Assembly: GCA_030873995.1 (NCBI GenBank)
Contig: GCA_030873995.1_4701.1
Length of the DNA stretch: 45,609 bases
Strand: one strand, 5' to 3'
Source of the DNA: a phage
Within the stretch, counting starts at the first letter, position 1; every line of letters begins with the position of its first letter. A model generated the notes under the pieces. That model saw nothing but the letters and a program-made list of their open reading frames with translations, searched no databases and was not told the DNA's origin. A program made the position numbers and the translations under genes. Positions 2,393 to 45,292 of the stretch are shown one piece after another.

Positions 2393-3943
2393 ATGAGGCA
2401 AGACACCGACCTTGAATATGGTGGCAAGCGGTCTAAGATACCTAAGCTGTGGGAGAAGTTATCAACTAAGCGTAACCCATTTATGGATAGGGCTAAACAT
2501 TATGCCAGACTCACCTTGCCTTACCTTATGAATGAGGAGGGTGATAACAATACATCTCAAAACGGATGGCAAGGTGTCGGTGCTCAAGCCACTAACCACT
2601 TAGCTAACAAGTTAGCGCAAGTTCTCTTCCCTGCTCAACGCTCTTTCTTCCGAGTTGACTTGACAGCAAAAGGAGAGAAGATATTAAACAACAGAGGTCT
2701 TAAGAAGACCAAATTAGCTACGCTATTTGCTCAAGTAGAGACTGCTGCTATGAAGCAGTTAGAGCAGCGGCAGTTCCGCCCAGCGGTGGTGGAGTGCTTC
2801 AAGCATTTGATTGTTGCTGGCAACTGTATGTTGTACAAGCCAAGCAAGGGTGCAATCAGTGCGATACCGATGCATCACTATGTAGTTAATAGAGATGCCA
2901 ATGGTGAACTGCTGGATATTATCTTACTGCAAGAGAAGGCTCTCAAGACATTCGACCCTGCAACTCGCATGGCTATTGAAGTAGGCATGAAGGGTAAGAA
3001 GTGCAAAGACAGTGATAATGTAAAACTCTACACACACGCCAAGTATGAGGGTGAAGGTTTTTGGGAATTAAAGCAATCAGCAGATGATATTCCTATTGGT
3101 GAATCTAGCAGAATCAAGGCTGATAAACTCCCATTCATCCCTCTTACTTGGAAGAGGTCGTATGGGGAAGACTGGGGTCGCCCTCTTGCAGAGGATTATT
3201 CTGGGGATTTATTCGTAATCCAATTTCTGTCCGAAGCAGTTGCACGTGGCGCTGCTTTGATGTCCGACATTAAATACCTGATTCGTCCAGGTGCTCAGAC
3301 AGATGTAGACCATTTTGTTAACTCGGGAACGGGTGAAGTAATCACTGGCGTGGAAGAGGACATCCATATTGTACAATTAGGGAAGTATGCAGATCTAACA
3401 CCAATAAGTGCGGTGCTAGAAGTTTATACCCGCCGTATCGGCGTAGTCTTTATGATGGAGACTATGACGCGACGAGATGCAGAACGTGTAACTGCTGTAG
3501 AGATACAGCGAGATGCTCTTGAGATTGAGCAGAACATGGGTGGCGTGTATTCCCTCTTTGCTACGACCATGCAGACTCCCGTGGCTATGTGGGGTTTGCT
3601 TGATGCAGGTGACTCTTTCACTAGTGACCTAGTAGACCCTGTTATCATCACAGGCATTGAAGCGTTAGGTCGCATGGCAGAGTTGGATAAGCTGGCTAAC
3701 TTTGCTCAGTATATGGCATTACCTATGAGTTGGCCTGAGCCGGTACAGGCAGCAGTAAACTGGCCGGATTATATGGATTGGGTTCGTGGTCAGATCTCTG
3801 CTGAACTTCCATTCTTAAAGTCAGAAGAGCAGATGAAGCAAGAACAAGCACAGATGGCACAAGCACAGCAAGAGCAGATGCTTAATGAAGGAGTAGCTAA
3901 AGCTGTGCCGGGTGTCATTCAACAAGAACTTAAGGAGGCGTAA
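2393..3943 (+). CDS. portal (head-to-tail connector) protein
   Basis: 516 aa, T7 gp8-like size and position before scaffold and capsid; AGGAG RBS. Confidence 0.85.
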   Translation: MRQDTDLEYGGKRSKIPKLWEKLSTKRNPFMDRAKHYARLTLPYLMNEEGDNNTSQNGWQGVGAQATNHLANKLAQVLFPAQRSFFRVDLTAKGEKILNNRGLKKTKLATLFAQVETAAMKQLEQRQFRPAVVECFKHLIVAGNCMLYKPSKGAISAIPMHHYVVNRDANGELLDIILLQEKALKTFDPATRMAIEVGMKGKKCKDSDNVKLYTHAKYEGEGFWELKQSADDIPIGESSRIKADKLPFIPLTWKRSYGEDWGRPLAEDYSGDLFVIQFLSEAVARGAALMSDIKYLIRPGAQTDVDHFVNSGTGEVITGVEEDIHIVQLGKYADLTPISAVLEVYTRRIGVVFMMETMTRRDAERVTAVEIQRDALEIEQNMGGVYSLFATTMQTPVAMWGLLDAGDSFTSDLVDPVIITGIEALGRMAELDKLANFAQYMALPMSWPEPVQAAVNWPDYMDWVRGQISAELPFLKSEEQMKQEQAQMAQAQQEQMLNEGVAKAVPGVIQQELKEA

Positions 3944-16870: not shown

Positions 16871-17829
16871 TGAGTTACACATTCACTGAACATACAGCGA
16901 ATGGCACTCAAACTACTTTCCCCTTCCGGTTCGCTGGGAGAGACAAGGGGTACTTGAGGGCTTCTGATATTTTAGTTGAAGTAAGAAATGATGGCGTGTG
17001 GAACACGGTAAGTGGTTGGACACTTACAGGTACTAACCAGATAACCTTTAATGTACCGCCAGCGGCAAATACAAAACTTCGTATCAGGCGCGTTGTAGAG
17101 AAAGAAGAACCTTACGCCGAGTTTGACCGTGGTGTAACCTTGGATATGAAATCTCTCAATAACTCCTTTATACATCTTTTGGAAGTATCTCAGGAGCTAC
17201 TGGATGGTTTCTATCCAGATGGTTACTTTGTAAAGCAAGATGTATCTTGGGGTGGACATAAGATTACTGATTTGGCTGATGGCACAAATCCGGGAGATGC
17301 AGTAAATAAAGGACAGCTTGATTCCATCGACAAGAAGCATACAGATTGGAACGCCAAACAGGACATTGAGATTGCTGGTCTTAAAGCTGGTATGACTTCT
17401 GGTATTGCGCACAGAACTGTTCCTTGGTACACGATAGCCCAAGGTGGTGAGATTTCCGTAAAGCCCCCTTATGAATTTCAAGATGCACTAGTTTTCCTTA
17501 ATGGGGTATTGCAGCACCAAATTGTAGGCGCATACTCTATAAGCAACAACACTATCACTTTCGCAGAGCCGCTTGTGGCTGGTACAGAGGTGTATGTGTT
17601 GGTAGGTAGTCGTGTTGCTACATCTGAACCTAATATTCAGTTAGAGTTGAATTTTGACTTAGTAGAAGGCCAACAAGTAGTAAAGATTGGCTCTGCATTT
17701 AAGTATATTGAGGTTTATCTTGATGGACTATTACAACCTAAACTTACTTATCGGGTAGATGGTGACACTGTTACTTTCTCAGAGGGAGTGCCAGAATGCC
17801 GGATGACTGCTAAGATTATCACAGAATAA
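16870..17829 (+). CDS. tail fiber adaptor (gp17 N-terminal-domain-like)
   Basis: 320 aa resembling only the N-terminal tail-attachment domain of T7 gp17; no receptor-binding part. Confidence 0.7.
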   Translation: MSYTFTEHTANGTQTTFPFRFAGRDKGYLRASDILVEVRNDGVWNTVSGWTLTGTNQITFNVPPAANTKLRIRRVVEKEEPYAEFDRGVTLDMKSLNNSFIHLLEVSQELLDGFYPDGYFVKQDVSWGGHKITDLADGTNPGDAVNKGQLDSIDKKHTDWNAKQDIEIAGLKAGMTSGIAHRTVPWYTIAQGGEISVKPPYEFQDALVFLNGVLQHQIVGAYSISNNTITFAEPLVAGTEVYVLVGSRVATSEPNIQLELNFDLVEGQQVVKIGSAFKYIEVYLDGLLQPKLTYRVDGDTVTFSEGVPECRMTAKIITE

Positions 17830-18755: not shown

Positions 18756-20653
18756 TGGCTAAGGCAAGAGAATCACAAGCGGAGGCTCTTGCCAGATGGG
18801 AGATGCTACAGGAGTTACAGCAGACCTTTCCTTACACAGCGGAAGGTTTGCTTCTCTTTGCAGACACAGTTATTCATAACTTGATTGCAGGCAACCCTCA
18901 TCTGATTCGTATGCAGGCTGATATCTTGAAGTTCCTATTCTACGGACACAAGTACCGCCTCATCGAAGCGCCTCGTGGTATCGCTAAGACAACACTATCA
19001 GCAATCTATACGGTATTCCGTATTATTCATGAACCGCATAAGCGTATCATGGTTGTGTCCCAAAACGCCAAGCGAGCAGAGGAAATCGCAGGTTGGGTAG
19101 TTAAAATCTTCCGTGGCTTAGACTTTCTTGAGTTTATGCTGCCGGATATCTACGCTGGGGACCGTGCATCCGTTAAGGCGTTTGAGATTCATTACACCCT
19201 ACGTGGTAGTGATAAGTCTCCTTCTGTATCCTGTTACTCAATCGAAGCAGGTATGCAGGGTGCTCGTGCTGATATTATTCTAGCGGATGACGTAGAGTCG
19301 ATGCAGAATGCTCGTACGGCAGCGGGCCGTGCCTTGCTTGAGGAACTGACTAAGGAGTTTGAATCTATCAACCAGTTTGGGGATATCATTTACCTTGGTA
19401 CACCTCAGAACGTAAACTCTATCTACAACAACCTACCTGCTCGTGGTTACTCTGTTCGTATCTGGACTGCGCGTTACCCTTCAGTAGAGCAAGAGCAATG
19501 TTATGGCGACTTCCTTGCACCTATGATTGTTCAAGATATGAAGGACAACCCAGCACTTCGCTCAGGGTACGGGTTGGATGGTAATAGTGGTGCACCTTGT
19601 GCCCCTGAAATGTATGATGATGAAGTCCTGATTGAGAAGGAAATCTCTCAGGGTGCTGCTAAGTTCCAGCTTCAGTTCATGCTTAACACTCGCATGATGG
19701 ATGCTGACAGATACCCATTACGCCTGAACAATCTAATCTTCACCTCGTTTGGTACAGAGGAAGTCCCTGTGATGCCTACGTGGAGTAATGATTCCATAAA
19801 CATCATTGGTGATGCACCTAAGTATGGTAACAAGCCTACGGATTTCATGTACAGACCTGTAGCTCGCCCATACGAATGGGGTGCTGTCTCCCGCAAGATT
19901 ATGTATATTGACCCTGCGGGTGGTGGTAAGAACGGAGATGAGACGGGTGTAGCCATCATATTCCTGCACGGCACATTCATTTATGTGTATCAGTGCTTTG
20001 GTGTACCTGGCGGATACCGAGAGTCGTCCCTGAATCGCATTGTGCAGGCCGCAAAGCAGGCGGGTGTTAAAGAGGTATTCATTGAGAAGAACTTTGGTCA
20101 TGGAGCGTTTGAGGCGGTAATTAAGCCGTACTTTGAACGAGAGTGGCCTGTAACTCTGGAAGAGGATTACGCCACCGGACAGAAAGAGTTGCGTATCATT
20201 GAGACGCTGGAGCCGCTCATGGCAGCCCATAGGCTTATCTTCAATGCAGAGATGGTGAAGTCAGACTTTGAGTCGGTACAGCACTATCCGCTTGAACTAC
20301 GCATGTCCTACAGTCTTTTCAATCAAATGTCGAACATAACGATTGAGAAGAACAGCCTCCGGCACGATGACCGCCTAGACGCCCTGTATGGCGCTATACG
20401 GCAATTAACTTCTCAGATAGACTATGACGAGGTTACACGGATTAATCGCCTCAGAGCGCAGGAGATGCGCGATTACATCCATGCTATGAATACACCTCAT
20501 CTACGCAGGGCAATGCTATATGGAGATTACGGTACTGAGCGAAGAGTGACCAACACTTCCGTAGCGATGCAGCAGCGAGTTTACGGGCAGAACTGCCGAA
20601 ATAAATCGGCAAGCAGAAATACACTTTCTGCAAGGATTTCAAGGACTTATTAA
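18755..20653 (+). CDS. terminase large subunit
   Basis: 632 aa, T7 gp19-like; AAGGAGG RBS; start overlaps upstream stop. Confidence 0.9.
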   Translation: MAKARESQAEALARWEMLQELQQTFPYTAEGLLLFADTVIHNLIAGNPHLIRMQADILKFLFYGHKYRLIEAPRGIAKTTLSAIYTVFRIIHEPHKRIMVVSQNAKRAEEIAGWVVKIFRGLDFLEFMLPDIYAGDRASVKAFEIHYTLRGSDKSPSVSCYSIEAGMQGARADIILADDVESMQNARTAAGRALLEELTKEFESINQFGDIIYLGTPQNVNSIYNNLPARGYSVRIWTARYPSVEQEQCYGDFLAPMIVQDMKDNPALRSGYGLDGNSGAPCAPEMYDDEVLIEKEISQGAAKFQLQFMLNTRMMDADRYPLRLNNLIFTSFGTEEVPVMPTWSNDSINIIGDAPKYGNKPTDFMYRPVARPYEWGAVSRKIMYIDPAGGGKNGDETGVAIIFLHGTFIYVYQCFGVPGGYRESSLNRIVQAAKQAGVKEVFIEKNFGHGAFEAVIKPYFEREWPVTLEEDYATGQKELRIIETLEPLMAAHRLIFNAEMVKSDFESVQHYPLELRMSYSLFNQMSNITIEKNSLRHDDRLDALYGAIRQLTSQIDYDEVTRINRLRAQEMRDYIHAMNTPHLRRAMLYGDYGTERRVTNTSVAMQQRVYGQNCRNKSASRNTLSARISRTY

Positions 20654-26999: not shown

Positions 27000-27686
27000 C
27001 CAAAGGTGGTCACAAAGTAACCAAAGTCAAAATTTTGATGTAGGCGTGTGTGAGGTGTCTCGCCCTCGCCCTCGCCGGGTTGTCCCCATAGGGTGGCCTG
27101 AGGGAATCCGTCTTCGACGGGCAGGGCTGATGTACTCCTTGCCTAGTACAAGGGAGGCGGAGTGAACGCCTGGGACGGCCTAGGGAATGGCTTAGTGGTG
27201 GACAAGGTGATTACCTTAGTGAAGCCTCTTAGTGCATTCCTTAGGCCATTCAGGGCGTTTATGAGGTATTGACAGGGTGGATGGGTGTGGGCTATCTGTT
27301 CGTTTCGCTACGCTTCACTCACTGCTCCTCACTTCGTTCGTCGCTGCGGTAGCCTGATGTGTACCTTAGGTTATTACTTGATGGATAGCTTAGGTTAGCC
27401 TTAGTGGATTACCTTAGTTAAAGCCTTAGTGCTTCACTTAGTATCAGCTTAGTAGTGTACCTTAGTCAGACTTAGTGTCTTCTCTTAGTGATTGCATAGC
27501 TAAAGCTATAAGATGCAAATAGGTCGCGGTCGGTAGACCGCTAAAGAAAGAGAATGGTAATAAGATGCAGTAGGAGGAACACCAGAAACCTAGCCAACCT
27601 AAGCTATCCTAGCTCTATATCTATTGCTTTTCCTTAGTCTAACACGTTAGACAACCTATCTTATTCTTAGTGATGGTAACTTAGTG

Positions 27687-27715
27687 TTGACAAGATAATC
27701 TTAGTGTAATACTAT
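27687..27715 (+). promoter_or_regulatory. sigma70-type early promoter candidate
   Basis: TTGACA, 17-bp spacer, TACTAT; first strong host-type promoter after the repeat-rich terminal region. Confidence 0.55.
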
Positions 27716-28557: not shown

Positions 28558-28653
28558 TTAGATGGTAGCTTCTTAGTCTGGATAGGTTAAACCTAGGGTA
28601 TTCTTTTGAGTACCCTATAATGTAACCTAACTAACTAAATGAGGATTAATAAC

Positions 28654-29013
28654 ATGGCTATGTCTAATATGACTTACTCTCAGGTTTACAACAACGCTCA
28701 TGCTGCATTAGTTGAACGTATCTGGAATGATGCTATTGATTGTATTGATAACGCACATGATGCAATCCATGATGTGGCGGATAGTGCTGTACCAATCTAT
28801 TATGCTGACATCTTCTCCGTGATGGCGAGTGAAGGAATTGATCATTTCTTCGAAGACTCCGGCCTGATGCCAGACACTAAGGATGTAACGGTAGTATTGC
28901 AAGCCCGTATCTATGAGCAACTCACAATTGATCTATGGGAACGTGTTCAGTATATGATTGTTGAATACATCAACTCCGCCGAATATTTAGAAGAAGAAGA
29001 AGAGGAAGAATAA
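28654..29013 (+). CDS. ocr: Ocr (T7 gp0.3) DNA-mimic anti-restriction protein
   Basis: MAMSNMTY...[49 protein letters not shown] closely matches T7 Ocr as recalled; poly-Glu tail; GAGGA RBS. Confidence 0.9.
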
Positions 29014-29014
29014 G

Positions 29015-29128
29015 ATGGAAAAGCTATACAACTTTATCTTTTCAGACGGTGTAACCCTGAAGTGTTCCCTACGATTCGCACAAATTCGTGAGGAAGTACT
29101 AGGCACTACATACAAACTATTTAGCTGA
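29015..29128 (+). CDS. small ORF (37 aa) directly after ocr
   Basis: ATG 2 nt after the ocr stop; no homology recognised. Confidence 0.35.
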   Translation: MEKLYNFIFSDGVTLKCSLRFAQIREEVLGTTYKLFS

Positions 29129-29141
29129 CACTATAAGAGAA
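29119..29141 (+). promoter_or_regulatory. variant phage-RNAP promoter candidate with A at +1
   Basis: ATTTAGCTGACACTATAAGAGAA; three mismatches at -12 to -10; lies in the early region upstream of the RNAP gene. Confidence 0.4.
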
Positions 29142-29204
29142 GGCTTAACAAGGCGTTGCTACGGTAGCGCCTGATTAAACTTTCACTTACTAGGAGTTAA
29201 GACT

Positions 29205-29432
29205 ATGGATTTAGATAGCATCATTATGGCATTTGCTCTTATTGGCTTAAGCTGGTGCTCCTATCACCTTTACCGTGAGTTCTTATTTGATAAAGCTAAA
29301 CGCAAACTAAGAAAGGAAGGCGGTAATTACCTTTGTGTAAGAGGTGGGCTTGTAGAATACATTGCACCTAACGGCACGGAATGCGCCATTAGCAAAGATG
29401 CATTTATAGAAACGTGGCATTACATCAAGTAA
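29205..29432 (+). CDS. early small membrane protein (75 aa)
   Basis: AGGAG RBS; N-terminal TM helix IIMAFALIGLSWCSY. Confidence 0.55.
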   Translation: MDLDSIIMAFALIGLSWCSYHLYREFLFDKAKRKLRKEGGNYLCVRGGLVEYIAPNGTECAISKDAFIETWHYIK

Positions 29433-29495
29433 CTAGCCTATAGCCTACCTGAGTGGGCTATGTGATATTTACTTACACTATATAAGGTGACTATT

Positions 29496-30419
29496 ATGAC
29501 TACTGAAAACACCCTCCTGTCTGTTCGTGAAGCTGCAACCGCTGAAATCAAGCAGCACTTAGACAATATCGGCACTTCTTACATCAAAGTTGGCGCTTGT
29601 CTGAATGAATTACGCGGTGATTTCGAAGGTCAAAAAGACTTTTTAGCTTATGTAGAATCAGAGTTTGGCATCAAGAAAGCACAATGCTACAAGCTGATGA
29701 GTGTAGCCCGTGTCTTTGAAGGAGACGAACGCTTTAAAGGTGTGGCTATGCGTGTAATGCTGGCGCTTGTTCCTTTCGCTGATGAAAATATAATCATGGA
29801 GAAGGCCGCAGAACTCGCCGCAGCTGGCAAGCTGGACACTAATGCCGTAAATGCCCTGATTGATCCTAAGAAAGAGACAAAGGCCGAGACGGTACAATCT
29901 AAGGCTGAGACAGTAAAACCGCAGGAGAACGCGACTGAGGCCGCAGAAACTATGCAAGGACATGCAACCTTTGAGGATTTCATCTTAGAGAAGGCGAAGG
30001 AGGAGTTACAAAGTGTGCCGCCAGTAAGTGAGTCGGGTAACGACGAATCCGCACCGTGGGAAGATGAAAGCAAGCCGGAAGGCACAAAGGCAGCACCGCT
30101 GGATAACACGGTTAATACCGAAAACGCCGCTATTGCTGGTCTGCTGGCACAAATTAAAGCACTGACCGAGCAATTACAGGCAGCTAATGACCGCATTGCC
30201 TCCTTAAGCAGCGCACGCGAAAGCAAGAAAGCAGCCGCGCCTATGCTGCCGCAATTCAAATCTTCCTGCTTCTATGCTCGCTTAGGTTTAAGCGCTGAGG
30301 AGGCAACGAAGAAAACAGCAGTTAACAAGGCACGCCGCGAACTGGTTAAGCTAGGCTACGGCGAAGGCCATGAAGCATGGCCCTTAATCTCTGAGGCAGT
30401 AGAAGAATTAACTAAGTAA
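29496..30419 (+). CDS. early protein of unknown function (307 aa) immediately upstream of the RNAP gene
   Basis: AAGGTG RBS; Ala/Glu-rich low-complexity middle; occupies the T7 gene 0.7 position but has no kinase motifs. Confidence 0.6.
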   Translation: MTTENTLLSVREAATAEIKQHLDNIGTSYIKVGACLNELRGDFEGQKDFLAYVESEFGIKKAQCYKLMSVARVFEGDERFKGVAMRVMLALVPFADENIIMEKAAELAAAGKLDTNAVNALIDPKKETKAETVQSKAETVKPQENATEAAETMQGHATFEDFILEKAKEELQSVPPVSESGNDESAPWEDESKPEGTKAAPLDNTVNTENAAIAGLLAQIKALTEQLQAANDRIASLSSARESKKAAAPMLPQFKSSCFYARLGLSAEEATKKTAVNKARRELVKLGYGEGHEAWPLISEAVEELTK

Positions 30420-30482: not shown

Positions 30483-33110
30483 ATGCAAGACCTACACGCT
30501 ATTCAACTTCAACTTGAAGAAGAAATGTTTAACGGAGGTATCCGTCGCTTTGAAGCGGACCAACAACGCCAGATTGCATCCGGTAATGAATCCGACACGG
30601 CATGGAATCGCCGCTTATTGTCTGAGTTAATCGCGCCAATGGCTGAAGGCATTCAGGCATACAAGGAAGAGTATGAAGGTAAAAGAGGCCGTGCACCGCG
30701 TGCATTAGCTTTCATTAACTGCGTAGAAAACGAAGTGGCAGCATATATCACGATGAAAATCGTTATGGATATGCTGAACACGGATGTAACCTTGCAGGCT
30801 ATAGCCATGAATGTAGCTGACCGCATTGAGGACCAAGTACGTTTTAGCAAGCTGGAAGGTCACGCCGCCAAATACTTTGAGAAAGTTAAGAAGTCACTTA
30901 AGGCAAGTAAGACTAAATCATATCGCCATGCGCACAACGTAGCGGTCGTGGCTGAGAAGTCAGTAGCTGACCGTGACGCTGATTTCTCTCGCTGGGAGGC
31001 GTGGCCTAAAGATACCTTGCTACAAATCGGTATGACCTTGCTAGAAATACTGGAAAATAGTGTATTCTTCAATGGTCAGCCTGTCTTTCTTCGCACCTTG
31101 CGCACTAATGGTGGCAAGCATGGCGTTTACTACTTACAGACTAGCGAACACGTGGGTGAATGGATAACTGCATTTAAAGAGCACGTAGCTCAGCTGAGTC
31201 CAGCCTATGCGCCTTGCGTTATTCCTCCTCGTCCGTGGGTTTCTCCGTTTAATGGTGGCTTCCATACCGAGAAAGTGGCGAGTCGTATTCGTCTGGTTAA
31301 AGGAAACCGCGAGCACGTCCGCAAGCTGACCAAAAAGCAAATGCCAGCGGTTTACAAGGCTGTTAACGCTTTGCAGGCGACTAAGTGGCAGGTTAATAAA
31401 GAGGTTTTGCAGGTAGTAGAGGACGTTATCCGTCTCGACCTTGGTTATGGTGTGCCTTCCTTTAAACCGCTCATCGACCGTGAGAACAAGCCAGCTAATC
31501 CAGTGCCGTTAGAGTTCCAGCACCTGCGAGGCCGTGAACTTAAAGAGATGCTAACGCCGGAACAATGGCAAGCCTTCATCAACTGGAAAGGCGAATGTAC
31601 CAAGCTGTATACCGCTGAAACTAAGCGCGGCAGCAAGTCGGCGGCAACCGTTCGTATGGTCGGGCAGGCCCGTAAATACAGCCAGTTTGACGCAATATAC
31701 TTCGTGTATGCACTGGATAGCCGTTCACGCGTTTATGCGCAATCTAGCACGCTCTCGCCGCAATCAAACGACTTAGGCAAGGCATTGCTCCGTTTTACCG
31801 AAGGGCAGCGTCTTGATAGCGCTGAGGCGCTTAAGTGGTTTTTGGTGAACGGGGCGAATAACTGGGGTTGGGATAAGAAAACTTTTGACGTGCGCACCTC
31901 TAACGTGCTGGATGGCGAATTTCAAGACATGTGCCGCGACATTGCAGCCGATCCGCTGACCTTCACTCAATGGGTAAATGCTGATTCCCCTTACGGCTTC
32001 CTTGCATGGTGCTTTGAATATGCGCGTTATCTGGATGCACTGGATGAAGGCACGCAAGACCAATTCATGACGCACCTACCCGTCCATCAAGACGGTAGTT
32101 GCTCTGGTATCCAGCACTATAGCGCGATGTTACGCGATGAAGTAGGTGCGAAAGCAGTAAACCTTAAGCCTTCTGACTTCCCTCAAGATATTTATGGCGC
32201 GGTTGCGCAGGTTGTTATCCAGAAGAATTACGCCTACATGAATGCAGACGATGCAGAGACTTTCACATCTGGAAGCGTCACACTTACAGGTGCAGAACTG
32301 CGTAGCATGGCTAGTGCGTGGGATATGATAGGAATAACTCGCGGATTGACCAAAAAGCCCGTAATGACACTACCTTATGGCAGCACACGTCTAACCTGCC
32401 GTGAATCAGTGATTGATTATATCGTTGATTTGGAAGAAAAAGAGGCCCAACGAGCTATTGCGGAAGGGCGTACCGCCAATCCTGTACACCCTTTTGATAA
32501 TGACCGTAAGGACAGCCTGACACCTAGCGCAGCTTATAACTATATGACAGCTTTAATCTGGCCTTCTATTTCGGAAGTGGTTAAAGCTCCTATAGTGGCA
32601 ATGAAAATGATTCGTCAGCTTGCCCGTTTCGCAGCTAAAAGGAATGAAGGCTTAGAGTATACCTTGCCTACTGGCTTCATCTTGCAACAAAAGATTATGG
32701 CTACTGATATGCTCCGCGTATCCACTTGCCTGATGGGAGAAATCAAGATGAGTCTACAGATTGAAACGGACGTAGTGGATGAAACGGCTATGATGGGCGC
32801 TGCTGCTCCTAACTTTGTGCATGGTCATGATGCCAGTCACCTTATCTTAACAGTCTGCGACCTTGTTGATAAAGGGATTACATCTATCGCAGTCATTCAT
32901 GATTCTTTCGGTACTCACGCAGGCCGTACAGCCGATCTTCGTGATAGCTTAAGGGCAGAAATGGTGAAGATGTATCAAGGCCGTAATGCCCTGCAAAGCC
33001 TGTTAGATGAGCATGAAGAACGCTGGTTAGTAGACACCGGAATCCAAGTGCCAGAGCAAGGAGAGTTTGACCTTAACGAAATCTTAGTATCTGACTATTG
33101 CTTCGCATAA
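30483..33110 (+). CDS. single-subunit DNA-dependent RNA polymerase (T7/SP6 type)
   Basis: 875 aa; [17 protein letters not shown] and HDSFGT catalytic motifs; C-terminus ends CFA. Confidence 0.95.
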
Positions 33111-33118
33111 TATTAATA

Positions 33119-33149
33119 GGCCATTCCTTCGGGAGTGGCCTTTTCTTTT
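33119..33149 (+). terminator. intrinsic terminator after the RNAP gene (early terminator analog)
   Basis: 9-bp stem GGCCATTCC/GGAGTGGCC with UUCG tetraloop, then TTTTCTTTT. Confidence 0.8.
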
Positions 33150-33183: not shown

Positions 33184-33199
33184 GTCTCACATGTGAGAC
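33184..33199 (+). repeat. 16-bp perfect palindrome (copy 2), abuts promoter 33202
   Basis: Read directly. Confidence 0.9.
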
Positions 33200-33201
33200 T
33201 T

Positions 33202-33224
33202 ATTTACCGGACACTATAGGATAG
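33202..33224 (+). promoter_or_regulatory. phage-RNAP promoter (origin-flanking, upstream copy)
   Basis: ATTTACCGGACACTATAGGATAG; C at -11; palindrome 33184..33199 abuts it. Confidence 0.75.
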
Positions 33225-33364
33225 CCGTCGGAGACGGGAAAGAAAGGGAAGATAAAGGATATAAAGGAAGTAATAGGTATTAAAGGTTATATAGGTTATC
33301 TAGGAATACCTATTACCTTCTTCTTTCCTCTTATTACCACTTAGAGGAAGGGCAGATCTAGGTT
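33225..33364 (+). other. candidate primary origin of replication: AT/purine-rich repeat region between twin phage promoters
   Basis: GAAAGAAAGGGAAGATAAAGGATATAAAGGAAG and AGGTTATATAGGTTA repeats with a long imperfect inverted repeat; same arrangement as the T7 primary origin. Confidence 0.45.
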
Positions 33365-33380
33365 GTCTCACATGTGAGAC
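33365..33380 (+). repeat. 16-bp perfect palindrome (copy 3), abuts promoter 33386
   Basis: Read directly. Confidence 0.9.
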
Positions 33381-33385
33381 TTCGT

Positions 33386-33408
33386 ATTTACCGGACAGTA
33401 TAGATAAG
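33386..33408 (+). promoter_or_regulatory. phage-RNAP promoter (origin-flanking, downstream copy)
   Basis: ATTTACCGGACAGTATAGATAAG; G at -5; palindrome 33365..33380 abuts it. Confidence 0.6.
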
Positions 33409-35748: not shown

Positions 35749-35787
35749 AGGCTCTTATTAAGTACATTAAATAACTGGAGATTGATT

Positions 35788-36471
35788 ATGTATAAATTAG
35801 TATTGAATGTAGGTGATTATGTTCGTAACATCAATGAAGCCTCACGTCGTTATCGTTGCCGTGGTGTAGTGGCTCGTGTAAGTGAGAACATGTATCATGT
35901 AGAATATGATGATGGTATTAAGGCTTCTTATCACAAGAAAACCGCACATAAATATCTTGAAAAGGTTGTAGAGGTAAACAATCAATGTAAGTGCATACAT
36001 GATGAGGTTTGCGATAAATGTGCTCGCCAGATGCTTAAGAATTTCCTAGCCCCTCTTTATTATGGTGCTGGTCCTCAAACACTAGCAGAGTACATGGCAG
36101 AAAAGAAAACCACACTCAAGAAAGAGCGTCGCAATGTAATCACTGGTAAGACTCAAAGTGGGATGATTAAGCAATGTGGCACTGCATTAGGTGTTACACA
36201 GTTCAATACTCGTGCATTGGGTAAATCCACAGGGCAAGCTATGGTGAAAATTGGTGAAGCTATGATGCACCCAAATGTGCCTGTGCGAATCTTGGATGTT
36301 GACCATGCAATCACAGAGCATGGCACACCACGGCGTGTAGCTAATAATCATTTCGCCGACACTATAGAAGGTATTATTCGTAAGCAAGGGTTGAAGGGTC
36401 TTCACATCTTAAATGGTGAAGAATTACTGTACCTACCTATCGTTACTGAAGAAACATACGTGAATATCTAA
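35788..36471 (+). CDS. hypothetical protein (227 aa)
   Basis: GGAG RBS before ATG 35788; Cys cluster CKCIHDEVCDKC; contains a degenerate promoter-like site. Confidence 0.55.
   Translation: MYKLVLNVGDYVRNINEASRRYRCRGVVARVSENMYHVEYDDGIKASYHKKTAHKYLEKVVEVNNQCKCIHDEVCDKCARQMLKNFLAPLYYGAGPQTLAEYMAEKKTTLKKERRNVITGKTQSGMIKQCGTALGVTQFNTRALGKSTGQAMVKIGEAMMHPNVPVRILDVDHAITEHGTPRRVANNHFADTIEGIIRKQGLKGLHILNGEELLYLPIVTEETYVNI
36350..36372 (+). promoter_or_regulatory. degenerate promoter-like site inside CDS 35788..36471
   Basis: ATTTCGCCGACACTATAGAAGGT; four mismatches at -13 to -10. Confidence 0.25.
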
Positions 36472-42222: not shown

Positions 42223-42513
42223 ATGCCGACTATTGAAGAACGTTTCCTGATTCACGTGAGCTTCTCATCCATACATCTTGGTTATCTTATCACTATTCTC
42301 TTAGGTGAAGAGATTTATCTGCATAACCACTTAATACCAGAGTATGTATGTCACCGAGATAAGATACACCCTACTAATTGGGCGAAAGAGTGGCTGCGTG
42401 AACATGTGCTGAAGGAGTGGCCTACATGCGACCAAACTTCGACTTCGGAGCTACAGTATCGGAAGACAATAACCTGTTGCTGTGGCCGACTGAAGGTAAT
42501 CGAATCGCTTTAA
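42223..42513 (+). CDS. hypothetical protein (96 aa), 3' end overlaps the exonuclease start
   Basis: GGAGAA RBS; preceded by a hairpin terminator candidate. Confidence 0.4.
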   Translation: MPTIEERFLIHVSFSSIHLGYLITILLGEEIYLHNHLIPEYVCHRDKIHPTNWAKEWLREHVLKEWPTCDQTSTSELQYRKTITCCCGRLKVIESL

Positions 42514-43872: not shown

Positions 43873-44275
43873 GATGAAGCAATCTGAACTTGGTGAAGTT
43901 CGTGATATACTGTGTGAAAGACAAGGTTGGCGTTGCCCTATTTGTGGAGGTCATTTAAAACTTATCTCTAAAGCAAATAGGGTCGTTGACCATTCACACG
44001 ATAATGTAGGTGCAGTCCGTGGTGTATTATGCCGTGGGTGCAATGGAGGTATCGGCAAGATAGAAGCGTATGCACAGTCGTATTGTAAGGCTGGCAATAA
44101 TACGCTTGAGGTTATCAAAGTTCTACGTAATCTTGCGGACTACTTAGAACTCCATCGCACACCGCAGACAGAGTGGATTTATTACAAACATCAAACGGAG
44201 GCAGAGAAACGAGAGGCTAAGAATCGTAAGGCTCGCCTTGCTTATGCAAGAAAGAAGGAGGCTAAGAGTGGCTAA
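43865..44275 (+). CDS. recombination endonuclease VII-like (Holliday junction resolvase)
   Basis: CPICGG...VVDHSHDN...RGVLCRGCNGG signature. Confidence 0.75.
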   Translation: MRKMKQSELGEVRDILCERQGWRCPICGGHLKLISKANRVVDHSHDNVGAVRGVLCRGCNGGIGKIEAYAQSYCKAGNNTLEVIKVLRNLADYLELHRTPQTEWIYYKHQTEAEKREAKNRKARLAYARKKEAKSG

Positions 44276-45275
44276 ACTTCGTAGCCTTTATAAAGACTCC
44301 GAGGTGCTTGATGCAATCGAGCAAGCTACCGACGAGAAAGGTAATGTTAACTATAATGAGATGGCGAAGATCCTATCTAGCCACCCTGTGGGTAAGAAGA
44401 TCACCCGTCAACTTGCTCGGTATTGGCATGGTCAATTTAAGAAGACCAAGAAGAATGGCGATTACTACCAGACTCTTCTGCAAGAGGATAAGCGTATCAA
44501 AGAAGAGCGTAAGCTCAGGACTCCTGACCGCTACGAGGATTTGGCTATTGTACCATTGCCTGACTCGCCTCATCGAAGTGTACTGGTAATCCCTGATACT
44601 CATGCACCTTATGAGCACCCAGATACCCTAGAGTTCCTTGCAGCCGTGGCGGCACGTTACCGTCCAGACACAGTGGTACACCTAGGAGATGAGGCAGACA
44701 AACATGCCCTGTCATTCCACGATTCGGACCCAAATCTGGATAGTGCTGGCATGGAGCTAGAGAAGGCTCGTGTCTTCATGCACAAGTTGCACAAGATGTT
44801 CCCTGTGATGCGCCTGTGTCATTCTAATCACGGCTCTATGCACTTCCGTAAGGCAAGCGCCAAGGGTATTCCAGTGCAATATCTTCGCACCTACCGTGAA
44901 GTCTTTTTCCCAAATGGAGGTGGCGACCAGTGGGATTGGCAGCATACACATGTTCTTGAGTTGCCGAATGGTGAACAAGTGGCATTCAAGCATCAACCTG
45001 CTGGCTCTGTCCTAGCAGATGCAGCGCATGAGCGTATGAACCTTGTGTGTGGTCACTTGCACGGTAAGATGTCTGTGGAGTACGCACGTAATACACATGA
45101 ACAGTATTGGGCTGTGCAAGGTGGCTGCTTAATTGATGAGTCATCCCGTGCATTTGCCTATGGGCGTGAGTCTAAATACAAGCCAGCATTAGGTTGTGTG
45201 GTTATTCTGGAGGGTGTACCTCATATTGTCCCGATGCAAACCAATAGCGACAACCGTTGGATTGGCAAGATTTAG
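44268..45275 (+). CDS. calcineurin-like metallophosphoesterase with about 100-aa N-terminal extension
   Basis: Motifs IPDTH, GDEAD, SNHG, GHLHG; AAGGAGG RBS 7 nt before GTG 44268. Confidence 0.65.
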   Translation: MAKLRSLYKDSEVLDAIEQATDEKGNVNYNEMAKILSSHPVGKKITRQLARYWHGQFKKTKKNGDYYQTLLQEDKRIKEERKLRTPDRYEDLAIVPLPDSPHRSVLVIPDTHAPYEHPDTLEFLAAVAARYRPDTVVHLGDEADKHALSFHDSDPNLDSAGMELEKARVFMHKLHKMFPVMRLCHSNHGSMHFRKASAKGIPVQYLRTYREVFFPNGGGDQWDWQHTHVLELPNGEQVAFKHQPAGSVLADAAHERMNLVCGHLHGKMSVEYARNTHEQYWAVQGGCLIDESSRAFAYGRESKYKPALGCVVILEGVPHIVPMQTNSDNRWIGKI

Positions 45276-45292
45276 TTGACACTATAGAACAA
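45270..45292 (+). promoter_or_regulatory. phage-RNAP promoter, SP6-like variant
   Basis: ATTTAGTTGACACTATAGAACAA; differs from the local consensus at -12 and -10. Confidence 0.6.

Follow-up and report, generated by a model that had tools for sequence, protein, structure and literature searches.

Does a phage that makes its own single-subunit RNA polymerase (RNAP) also transcribe the gene for that enzyme from a promoter of its own? The question is raised by a short promoter-like element, referred to here as the A-start site, that has A at its predicted start and overlaps the end of gene 4 in the window, by which we mean the whole stretch of 45,609 nucleotides of phage DNA that was analyzed (GenBank assembly GCA_030873995.1). 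The window is a circularly permuted Vectrevirus genome (a K1-5/K1E-like coliphage of the Autographiviridae, Molineuxvirinae, related to SP6), with the conventional left end of the genome at about window position 27058, and its 27- to 33-kb segment is 91 to 97% identical to many Vectrevirus Escherichia phages. The A-start site is the leftmost phage promoter and the sole one 5' of the early terminator, and from its sequence, its placement, and its conservation we consider it likely that positions 29119 to 29136 are a functional promoter for the phage's own RNAP. The features discussed are collected in Table 1.

Table 1. Features at and around the A-start site, in window coordinates. A hyphen within a promoter sequence, here and in the text, stands immediately before +1.
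Feature	Coordinates	Strand	Details
ocr	28639-29013		5' of gene 4 and of the A-start site
Gene 4	29015-29128	+	37 aa; PHROG 11746; agrees with the K1-5 annotation
Gene 4 TGA stop	29126-29128		Occupies -10 to -8 of the promoter; apparent from the sequence itself
Promoter-like element, -17 to -1	29119-29135	+	ATTTAGCTGACACTATA; 18.5 bits
Predicted start and initially transcribed sequence	29136-29141	+	AGAGAA, with +1 A at 29136; from the fixed promoter register
Stem-loop near the 5' end of the predicted transcript	29139-29184	+	Begins at +4; MFE -22.9 kcal/mol, z = -4.4
Lower stems of the stem-loop	29139-29143 with 29180-29184 (outer); 29145-29148 with 29175-29178 (AU)		2x2 internal loop above
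Top of the stem-loop	29151-29159 with 29164-29172 (upper stem); 29160-29163 (loop)		9-bp upper stem; UACG loop
Gene 5	29205-29432	+	75-aa membrane protein; first gene of the predicted unit
Second conserved hairpin	29439-29462	+	Between gene 5 and gp6; without a proper U tract
gp6	29496-30419	+	307 aa; always 5' of the RNAP gene
RNAP gene	30483-33110	+	Single-subunit RNAP, 875 aa; PHROG 414, E = 1e-289
Intrinsic terminator	33118-33141	+	10-bp stem, UUCG loop, then T tract; end of the early unit
First consensus-type (G-start) promoter	33202-33218	+	3' of the terminator
Variant promoter 45270	45270-45286	+	ATTTAGTTGACACTATA-GAACAA; 25.5 bits; SP6 homologue at 17428

Nine G-start sites, all on the plus strand, define the window's own promoter consensus, ATTTAC(T/C)GGACACTATA-GAAG. 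The A-start site, in which the A at 29136 is followed by GAGAAGG, departs from this consensus in having G for C at -12, T for G at -10, and AG for GA at +1/+2. Within the binding region (-17 to -5), 10 of 13 positions match, the mismatches being -12, -11, and -10, and the C at -11 is also present in two canonical sites. The TATA unwinding element (-4 to -1, at 29132 to 29135) is invariant in 15 aligned relatives, and the +1 base is a purine, but not the usual G. We built a promoter profile from the nine sites and scored both strands (∼91,000 positions; background mean of -39.9 with a standard deviation of 10.3). The A-start site ranks 12th, with only the nine canonical sites (32 to 39 bits), the variant promoter at 45270, and a tenth G-start site at 33386 above it, and the best clearly non-promoter position scores 10.7 bits. 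Core matches lie almost only on the plus strand (15 observed versus 4 expected), and a consensus scan reports no host sigma-70 promoter at the A-start site. The initial annotation had described an off-consensus copy of the phage promoter with A at +1 at this place, and both the sequence and its rank in the profile bear this out.

The placement of the site invites the same reading. It lies on the plus strand at a gene boundary, is co-directional with the genes around it, and is followed by a leader and a Shine-Dalgarno (SD) sequence, with the gene 5 ATG 69 nt 3' of +1. The coordinates of the open reading frames confirm that the genes for a membrane protein, a 307-aa protein, and the RNAP follow, as first annotated. 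No other site between the left end and the terminator exceeds 3 bits with the nine-site profile, and all G-start promoters are 3' of the early terminator, so that the A-start site is the only phage promoter 5' of it; the earlier suggestion that this position would permit the RNAP to transcribe its own gene therefore stands. The order of terminator, palindrome, and first G-start promoter is conserved in seven lineages, and the window shares it with SP6, K1-5, PP1, K13PH07C1S, PM85, and phiEa1H.

A simple sequence of events can be proposed from this layout. Host RNA polymerase would first read the early region from sigma-70 promoters, making the phage RNAP, which would then bind the A-start site and initiate with ATP at 29136 (AGAG). 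The transcript would at once fold into a stable stem-loop from +4, and transcription would continue through gene 5, gp6, and the RNAP gene as far as the terminator, the predicted outcome being that the RNAP gene is transcribed autogenously, with positive feedback. Promoter strength is probably kept low by the off-consensus -12 and -10 positions and by the A start, given the preference of these RNAPs for G. For SP6 RNAP, G is the preferred base at +1 (PMC10783517, PMC7429497), and T7 RNAP has a high Km for the initiating nucleotide (PMC11617373), because of which an A start should weaken a promoter of this type. The hairpin between gene 5 and gp6 (homologous hairpins are found in K1-5, SP6, K13PH07C1S, and phiEa1H) might act as an attenuator, stopping transcripts short of gp6 and the RNAP gene. 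Since the consensus promoters are all beyond the terminator, the A-start site would be the only starting place from which newly made RNAP could pass it. By analogy with T7 phiOL, for which such a role has been proposed, we tentatively suggest a handover during transcription-driven genome entry, in which the RNAP would start in DNA already internalized and carry transcription and entry past the early terminator; we hold this with distinctly less confidence than promoter function itself.

A weak promoter for the phage RNAP inside an early operon that the host transcribes, 5' of the RNAP gene and with a suboptimal start, could instead act as a roadblock, with RNAP parked on a poorly clearing A-start promoter so as to block host RNA polymerase and limit RNAP synthesis. 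Such an arrangement is without precedent among T7/SP6-type systems in the literature consulted for comparison, and the co-directional 5' hairpin and the SD-gene layout fit a productive promoter; we regard it as the most improbable of the readings considered here.

Part of the unusual sequence is accounted for by gene 4. The T at -10 is there because it is the first base of the gene 4 TGA stop, and the consensus G at this position would abolish that stop; the -10 deviation is not obviously a matter of regulatory design. Stop codons overlap the early sites of relatives also, with TAG at -10 to -8 in L024, TAA at -17 to -15 in K13PH07C1S, and, in Pectobacterium phage PP1, where the upstream gene is unrelated, the TAA of that gene at -15 to -13. 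The variant promoter at 45270 has the TAG stop of the open reading frame at 44238 to 45275 as its positions -14 to -12, the G at -12 being the last base of that frame. The initial annotation took 45270 for a second variant, closer to the SP6 sequence; a variant it is, but over -17 to -1 it and the site at 29119 are each one mismatch (-11) from the SP6 consensus, and 45270 is nearer overall only through its G start. The AATT variants (-17 to -14) of the promoters at 20652 and 40515 embed TAA stops. We note that the promoter variants at 20652, 40515, 45270, and 29119, as well as those in L024, L027, and L031, coincide with the stops of upstream reading frames, and dual coding appears to mould promoter sequence throughout the genomes of these phages. 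Since the -12 to -10 deviations are largely dual-coding constraints, they provide no evidence for a designed promoter class. The conserved hallmark of the A-start site is the +1 A, not these deviations: the +1 A is intergenic, unpaired in the predicted fold, and retained while -17 to -5 diverges, and the ∼60 other promoter sites listed across the lineages all have a G start.

The same overlap raises the prospect that the site is a fossil, promoter-like and functionless, that is kept because it shares the last codons and the stop of gene 4 and adjoins an RNA hairpin under selection of its own. The stop fixes positions -10 to -8, so that the gene 4 overlap explains part of the conservation and counts to that extent against promoter function; the site also fits its own consensus less well than do the canonical sites, and a decayed promoter-like sequence is present nearby, at 29466. 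However, the positions past the stop codon, from -7 to +3, are still invariant, and the comparisons with relatives below bear further on this reading.

The site is identical in K1-5 and K1E, and the homologous position in SP6 reads AGTTATGTGACACTATA-AGAT. With gp6 as the query, IMG/VR yielded 19 loci (64 to 97% protein identity), in all 19 of which the element is present at the end of gene 4 with AGA at +1 to +3; the other promoter-like sites within these loci have a G start without exception. The 101-nt region around the site matches 78 GenBank phage records. AGA occupies +1 to +3 in the early sites of Vectrevirus, the SP6-type phages, L024, PP1, K13PH07C1S, and ECBP5, the last an Escherichia coli phage from outside the subfamily in which a single variant of the phage's promoter, AATAAGACACTACAATA-AGAATAG, starts with A and lies 5' of the early region. 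Counting against the promoter, some phages are without the early site: it is absent from this place in Proteus phage PM85 and Erwinia phage phiEa1H, and AS51, a Vibrio phage, offers no more than a weak candidate, at 42294, 5' of its early region. Lineages without the early site have a G-start promoter near the left end (∼214 in PM85, ∼769 in phiEa1H, and 720 in Achelous). A scan of IMG/VR with the 14-mer TGACACTATAAGAG hit more than 120 contigs, most of them unrelated; these are chance matches and uninformative.

Early sites also vary together with the polymerases that would use them. The consensus is ATTTGTGTTGCACTATA-G in L024, where the early site is AATTATGTAGCACTATA-AGAG; PP1 has AATTAGGGCGGACTATA-GAA as its consensus and AATAAAGGCGGACTATA-AGAG as its early site, and Klebsiella phage K13PH07C1S has TAAT(A/T)GTGGCGAGTATA-GAA and TAATTGTGGCGAGTATA-AGAT, respectively. 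Thus, in the four lineages with different polymerase cores (SP6-type, L024, PP1, and K13PH07C1S), the early site bears the lineage's own core, and it is in exactly the lineages with divergent cores that the RNAP differs in the segment aligned with the specificity loop. When early sites were scored against the profile of every lineage (a cross-scoring matrix), four of the five scored best on their own (SP6, 21.1 bits; L024, 22.8; PP1, 24.1; K13PH07C1S, 27.9). The exception is Vectrevirus, whose early site keeps SP6-like -12 and -10 positions and scores 18.7 bits on its own profile versus 25.4 bits on that of SP6. This better match to the SP6 profile counts against the promoter reading, as the Vectrevirus RNAP may use its own early site poorly. 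Co-variation with the polymerase is nonetheless the strongest argument for a real promoter, and a functionless relic would not be expected to carry the own-lineage core in L024, PP1, and K13PH07C1S, given the many positions at which those cores differ.

Two further promoter-like sequences touch on polymerase specificity. At 36350 to 36366, ATTTCGCCGACACTATA-GAAGG lies inside the open reading frame at 35782 to 36471; its homologue in L024 (16684) keeps GACACTATA, whereas L024's own promoters have TTGCACTATA, and because the 36350 sequence does not track polymerase specificity, it may not be a promoter. The Vectrevirus-type relative L016 has a promoter at 3657 to 3673 (ATTTAGGTGACACTATA-GAAGAG) that is identical to the SP6 consensus and lies in the place homologous to window 22314. 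The RNAP of L016 is 97% identical to that of the window and has the same specificity-loop segment, which suggests cross-recognition or recent recombination.

The predicted transcript begins with a stem-loop that is itself strongly conserved. Across 15 sequences, 97.9% of the cells in the stem alignment are paired and both sides have changed in 7 of 13 pairs, compared with 30 to 48% paired in slid controls, and conservation extends to the unpaired flanks UUAACA and GAUUAA. The sequence after the hairpin at 29151 to 29172, GATTAAAC, has no T run, and the terminator scan does not report this hairpin; lacking a U tract, it is not an intrinsic terminator. Rfam has no family match for the stem-loop, the only hit, to a miRNA hairpin, being below threshold and due to chance. 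Stable 5' hairpins also lie 3' of several other intergenic promoters in the window. PM85 and phiEa1H have a hairpin here but no promoter, and PP1 has the promoter but no hairpin, which shows that the two elements are separable.

These observations bear on two of the alternatives. Retention of the hairpin alone in PM85 and phiEa1H is what would be expected if the promoter-like sequence were a relic beside a selected RNA structure; PP1, however, has an A-start site despite an unrelated upstream gene (SAMase-like) and no hairpin, and with the invariance of -7 to +3 and the lineage-specific cores, we consider the relic unlikely. Alternatively, the stem-loop could be the functional unit, a processing or stability element of the RNase III type between genes 4 and 5 in early transcripts made by the host polymerase, with initiation by the phage RNAP marginal. 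The strong stem covariation, the conserved flanks, and the presence of the hairpin without the promoter in two phages accord with this, and the predicted duplex (∼18 bp, a 2x2 internal loop, and conserved loop nucleotides, set against ∼20 bp for the RNase III type) is reminiscent in shape of the early RNase III sites of T7. Such an element would, however, leave the lineage-specific promoter core and the conserved +1 A unexplained, PP1 has the promoter without the hairpin, and there is no Rfam match. As the sole explanation it seems quite improbable, somewhat more so than the relic; since promoter and hairpin are separable, an RNA element would be complementary to a promoter and not exclusive of it.

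The site could also be a replication promoter that primes an origin, in the manner of T7 phi1.1A/1.1B or of the secondary origin at phiOL, and not serve gene expression. As the leftmost phage promoter, it has its position in common with T7 phiOL, which has a replication role. There is, however, no AT-rich tract or repeat array 3' of the site, where a gene starts 69 nt past +1, and cumulative GC skew changes monotonically and does not inflect near 29 kb. Better origin candidates are the tandem promoters and palindromes at 33184 to 33402, and we consider priming from the A-start site very improbable. The tandem promoters (33202 to 33218 and 33386 to 33402) lie immediately 3' of the RNAP terminator, each with a palindrome on its 5' side, and recall the arrangement of phi1.1A/1.1B at the primary origin of T7. 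The second of them, ATTTACCGGACAGTATA-GATAAG, has G at -5.

The 16-bp palindrome GTCTCACATGTGAGAC has up to nine copies in the window when three or fewer mismatches are allowed (0.23 expected), four of them exact (13017, 33184, 33365, and 35733) and the others with one mismatch (36877 and 41630), two (34165), or three (27637 and 2216). Several copies are just 5' of promoters (33202, 33386, and 41661), and one is near a sigma-70-like early promoter at 27687. In SP6, PP1, K13PH07C1S, and PM85 (GTCCAAC..GTTGGAC), and also in phiEa1H, the interval from the RNAP terminator to the first promoter contains related palindromes. They may be protein operators, origin elements, or RNA hairpins.

The genes between the A-start site and the RNAP gene differ in their conservation. 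The gene 5 slot (29205 to 29432; the same slot in L006 to L024) is a variable cassette between the early promoter and hairpin on one side and gp6 on the other, with at least five unrelated small reading frames across relatives, mostly with hydrophobic N termini, and no reading frame at all in L014 to L016 and K13PH07C1S. The gp6 gene is directly 5' of the RNAP gene in 214 phage records from the Molineuxvirinae, the Colwellvirinae, and others, with identity down to ∼30%. It has no Pfam or PDB relative, and a role as a T7 0.7-like kinase was rejected, there being no Pfam or PDB support and the kinase being a separate gene in Vibrio phage AS51. Just 5' of gp6, the sequence TATTTACTTACACTATATAAGG (29466 to 29487) resembles a decayed phage promoter; its counterpart in K1-5 is ATTTACTTAACACTATA-T, in register, other relatives have indels, and SP6 is degenerate. 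The minus strand of SP6 (L025) has ATGACACTATA-GG at 2378 to 2394, in a hairpin 3' of gene 6, a promoter-core look-alike made by one hairpin arm.

A wider proposal is that the single A-start promoter represents, in SP6-like phages, a distinct conserved regulatory class, ATP initiated and either autogenous or concerned with genome entry, whose output would track the ATP and not the GTP pool, or in which NAD-type cofactors would start and cap the RNAP mRNA. Its members may include Vectrevirus, Zindervirus, Axomammavirus, several unclassified Molineuxvirinae, and Gajwadongvirus ECBP5. In vitro, NAD-capped RNA is already made from phi2.5 of T7. We regard the class, in this full form, as doubtful.

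Should the site be active, SP6-, K1-5-, and K1E-type phages would carry a natural "autogene" under a deliberately weak, A-initiated promoter, with a bearing on the early-to-middle switch and on models of genome entry in these phages, and likewise on how therapeutic K1 phages and K1E/SP6 polymerase expression systems are engineered. It would be a clean natural case for the tuning of single-subunit RNAP promoters through the identity of +1, next to promoter variants moulded by the embedded stop codons of upstream genes. Genome annotation would be affected too: the site is unmarked in the GenBank records examined, none of which has a promoter annotation there, and one paper implies that K1E has no such promoter, using the words "unlike phages gh-1 and K1E" of a promoter 5' of the RNAP gene in phiA318 (PMC4099482); both points weigh against the promoter. 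In the literature covered here, the literal sequence TGACACTATAAGA has no match. Twelve promoters have been counted in SP6 (PMC11880802), a number equal to the 11 G-start sites plus the A-start site that we find in the SP6 genome.

The kind of element described here is already known, from variant promoters of single-subunit RNAPs, the A-initiating phi2.5, the leftmost phiOL, and the autoregulation idea for phiA318. Compared with the SP6 consensus promoter ATTTAGGTGACACTATA-GAAG, the A-start site has one mismatch (-11) over -17 to -1 and the same TATA unwinding element; unlike it, the site begins with AG and not GA, and the consensus of its own phage is ATTTACTGGACACTATA. For phiA318, a promoter (phi-A8) was predicted 5' of the kinase and RNAP genes and the idea of autoregulation published (PMC4099482). 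We rejected phi-A8 as a precedent: the sequence (AS51 1741 to 1754) matches its own consensus poorly, and it lies inside the gp6 homologue, unlike the A-start site at the end of gene 4.

Among T7 promoters, phi2.5 lies in the DNA-metabolism region 3' of gene 1 and so is not placed for autogenous transcription, and to our knowledge it is not conserved as the single A-start site of a genome. The likeness to T7 class II promoters that was first drawn for this locus holds insofar as phi2.5 is a natural promoter for a phage RNAP and has an A start (PMC10783517), but the nearer T7 counterpart is phiOL (PMC6171733). The off-consensus sequence and the A start may point, indirectly, to the lower strength and separate timing that would mark a weak, middle-period promoter of the class II type. 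Like the A-start site, phiOL is the leftmost phage promoter and is 5' of the RNAP gene; it has a non-canonical specificity triplet (AAC for GAC) and is regarded as weakly used, and a link with RNAP-mediated genome entry has been drawn for it (PMC6171733). These parallels make phiOL, by analogy, the closest match that we see to the A-start site. T7 phiOL precedes the host promoters and the entire early region and has a G start, whereas the A-start site is within the early operon, between genes 4 and 5, and starts with A. The phiOL-like arrangement, with a promoter at the left end, is that of PM85, phiEa1H, and Achelous.
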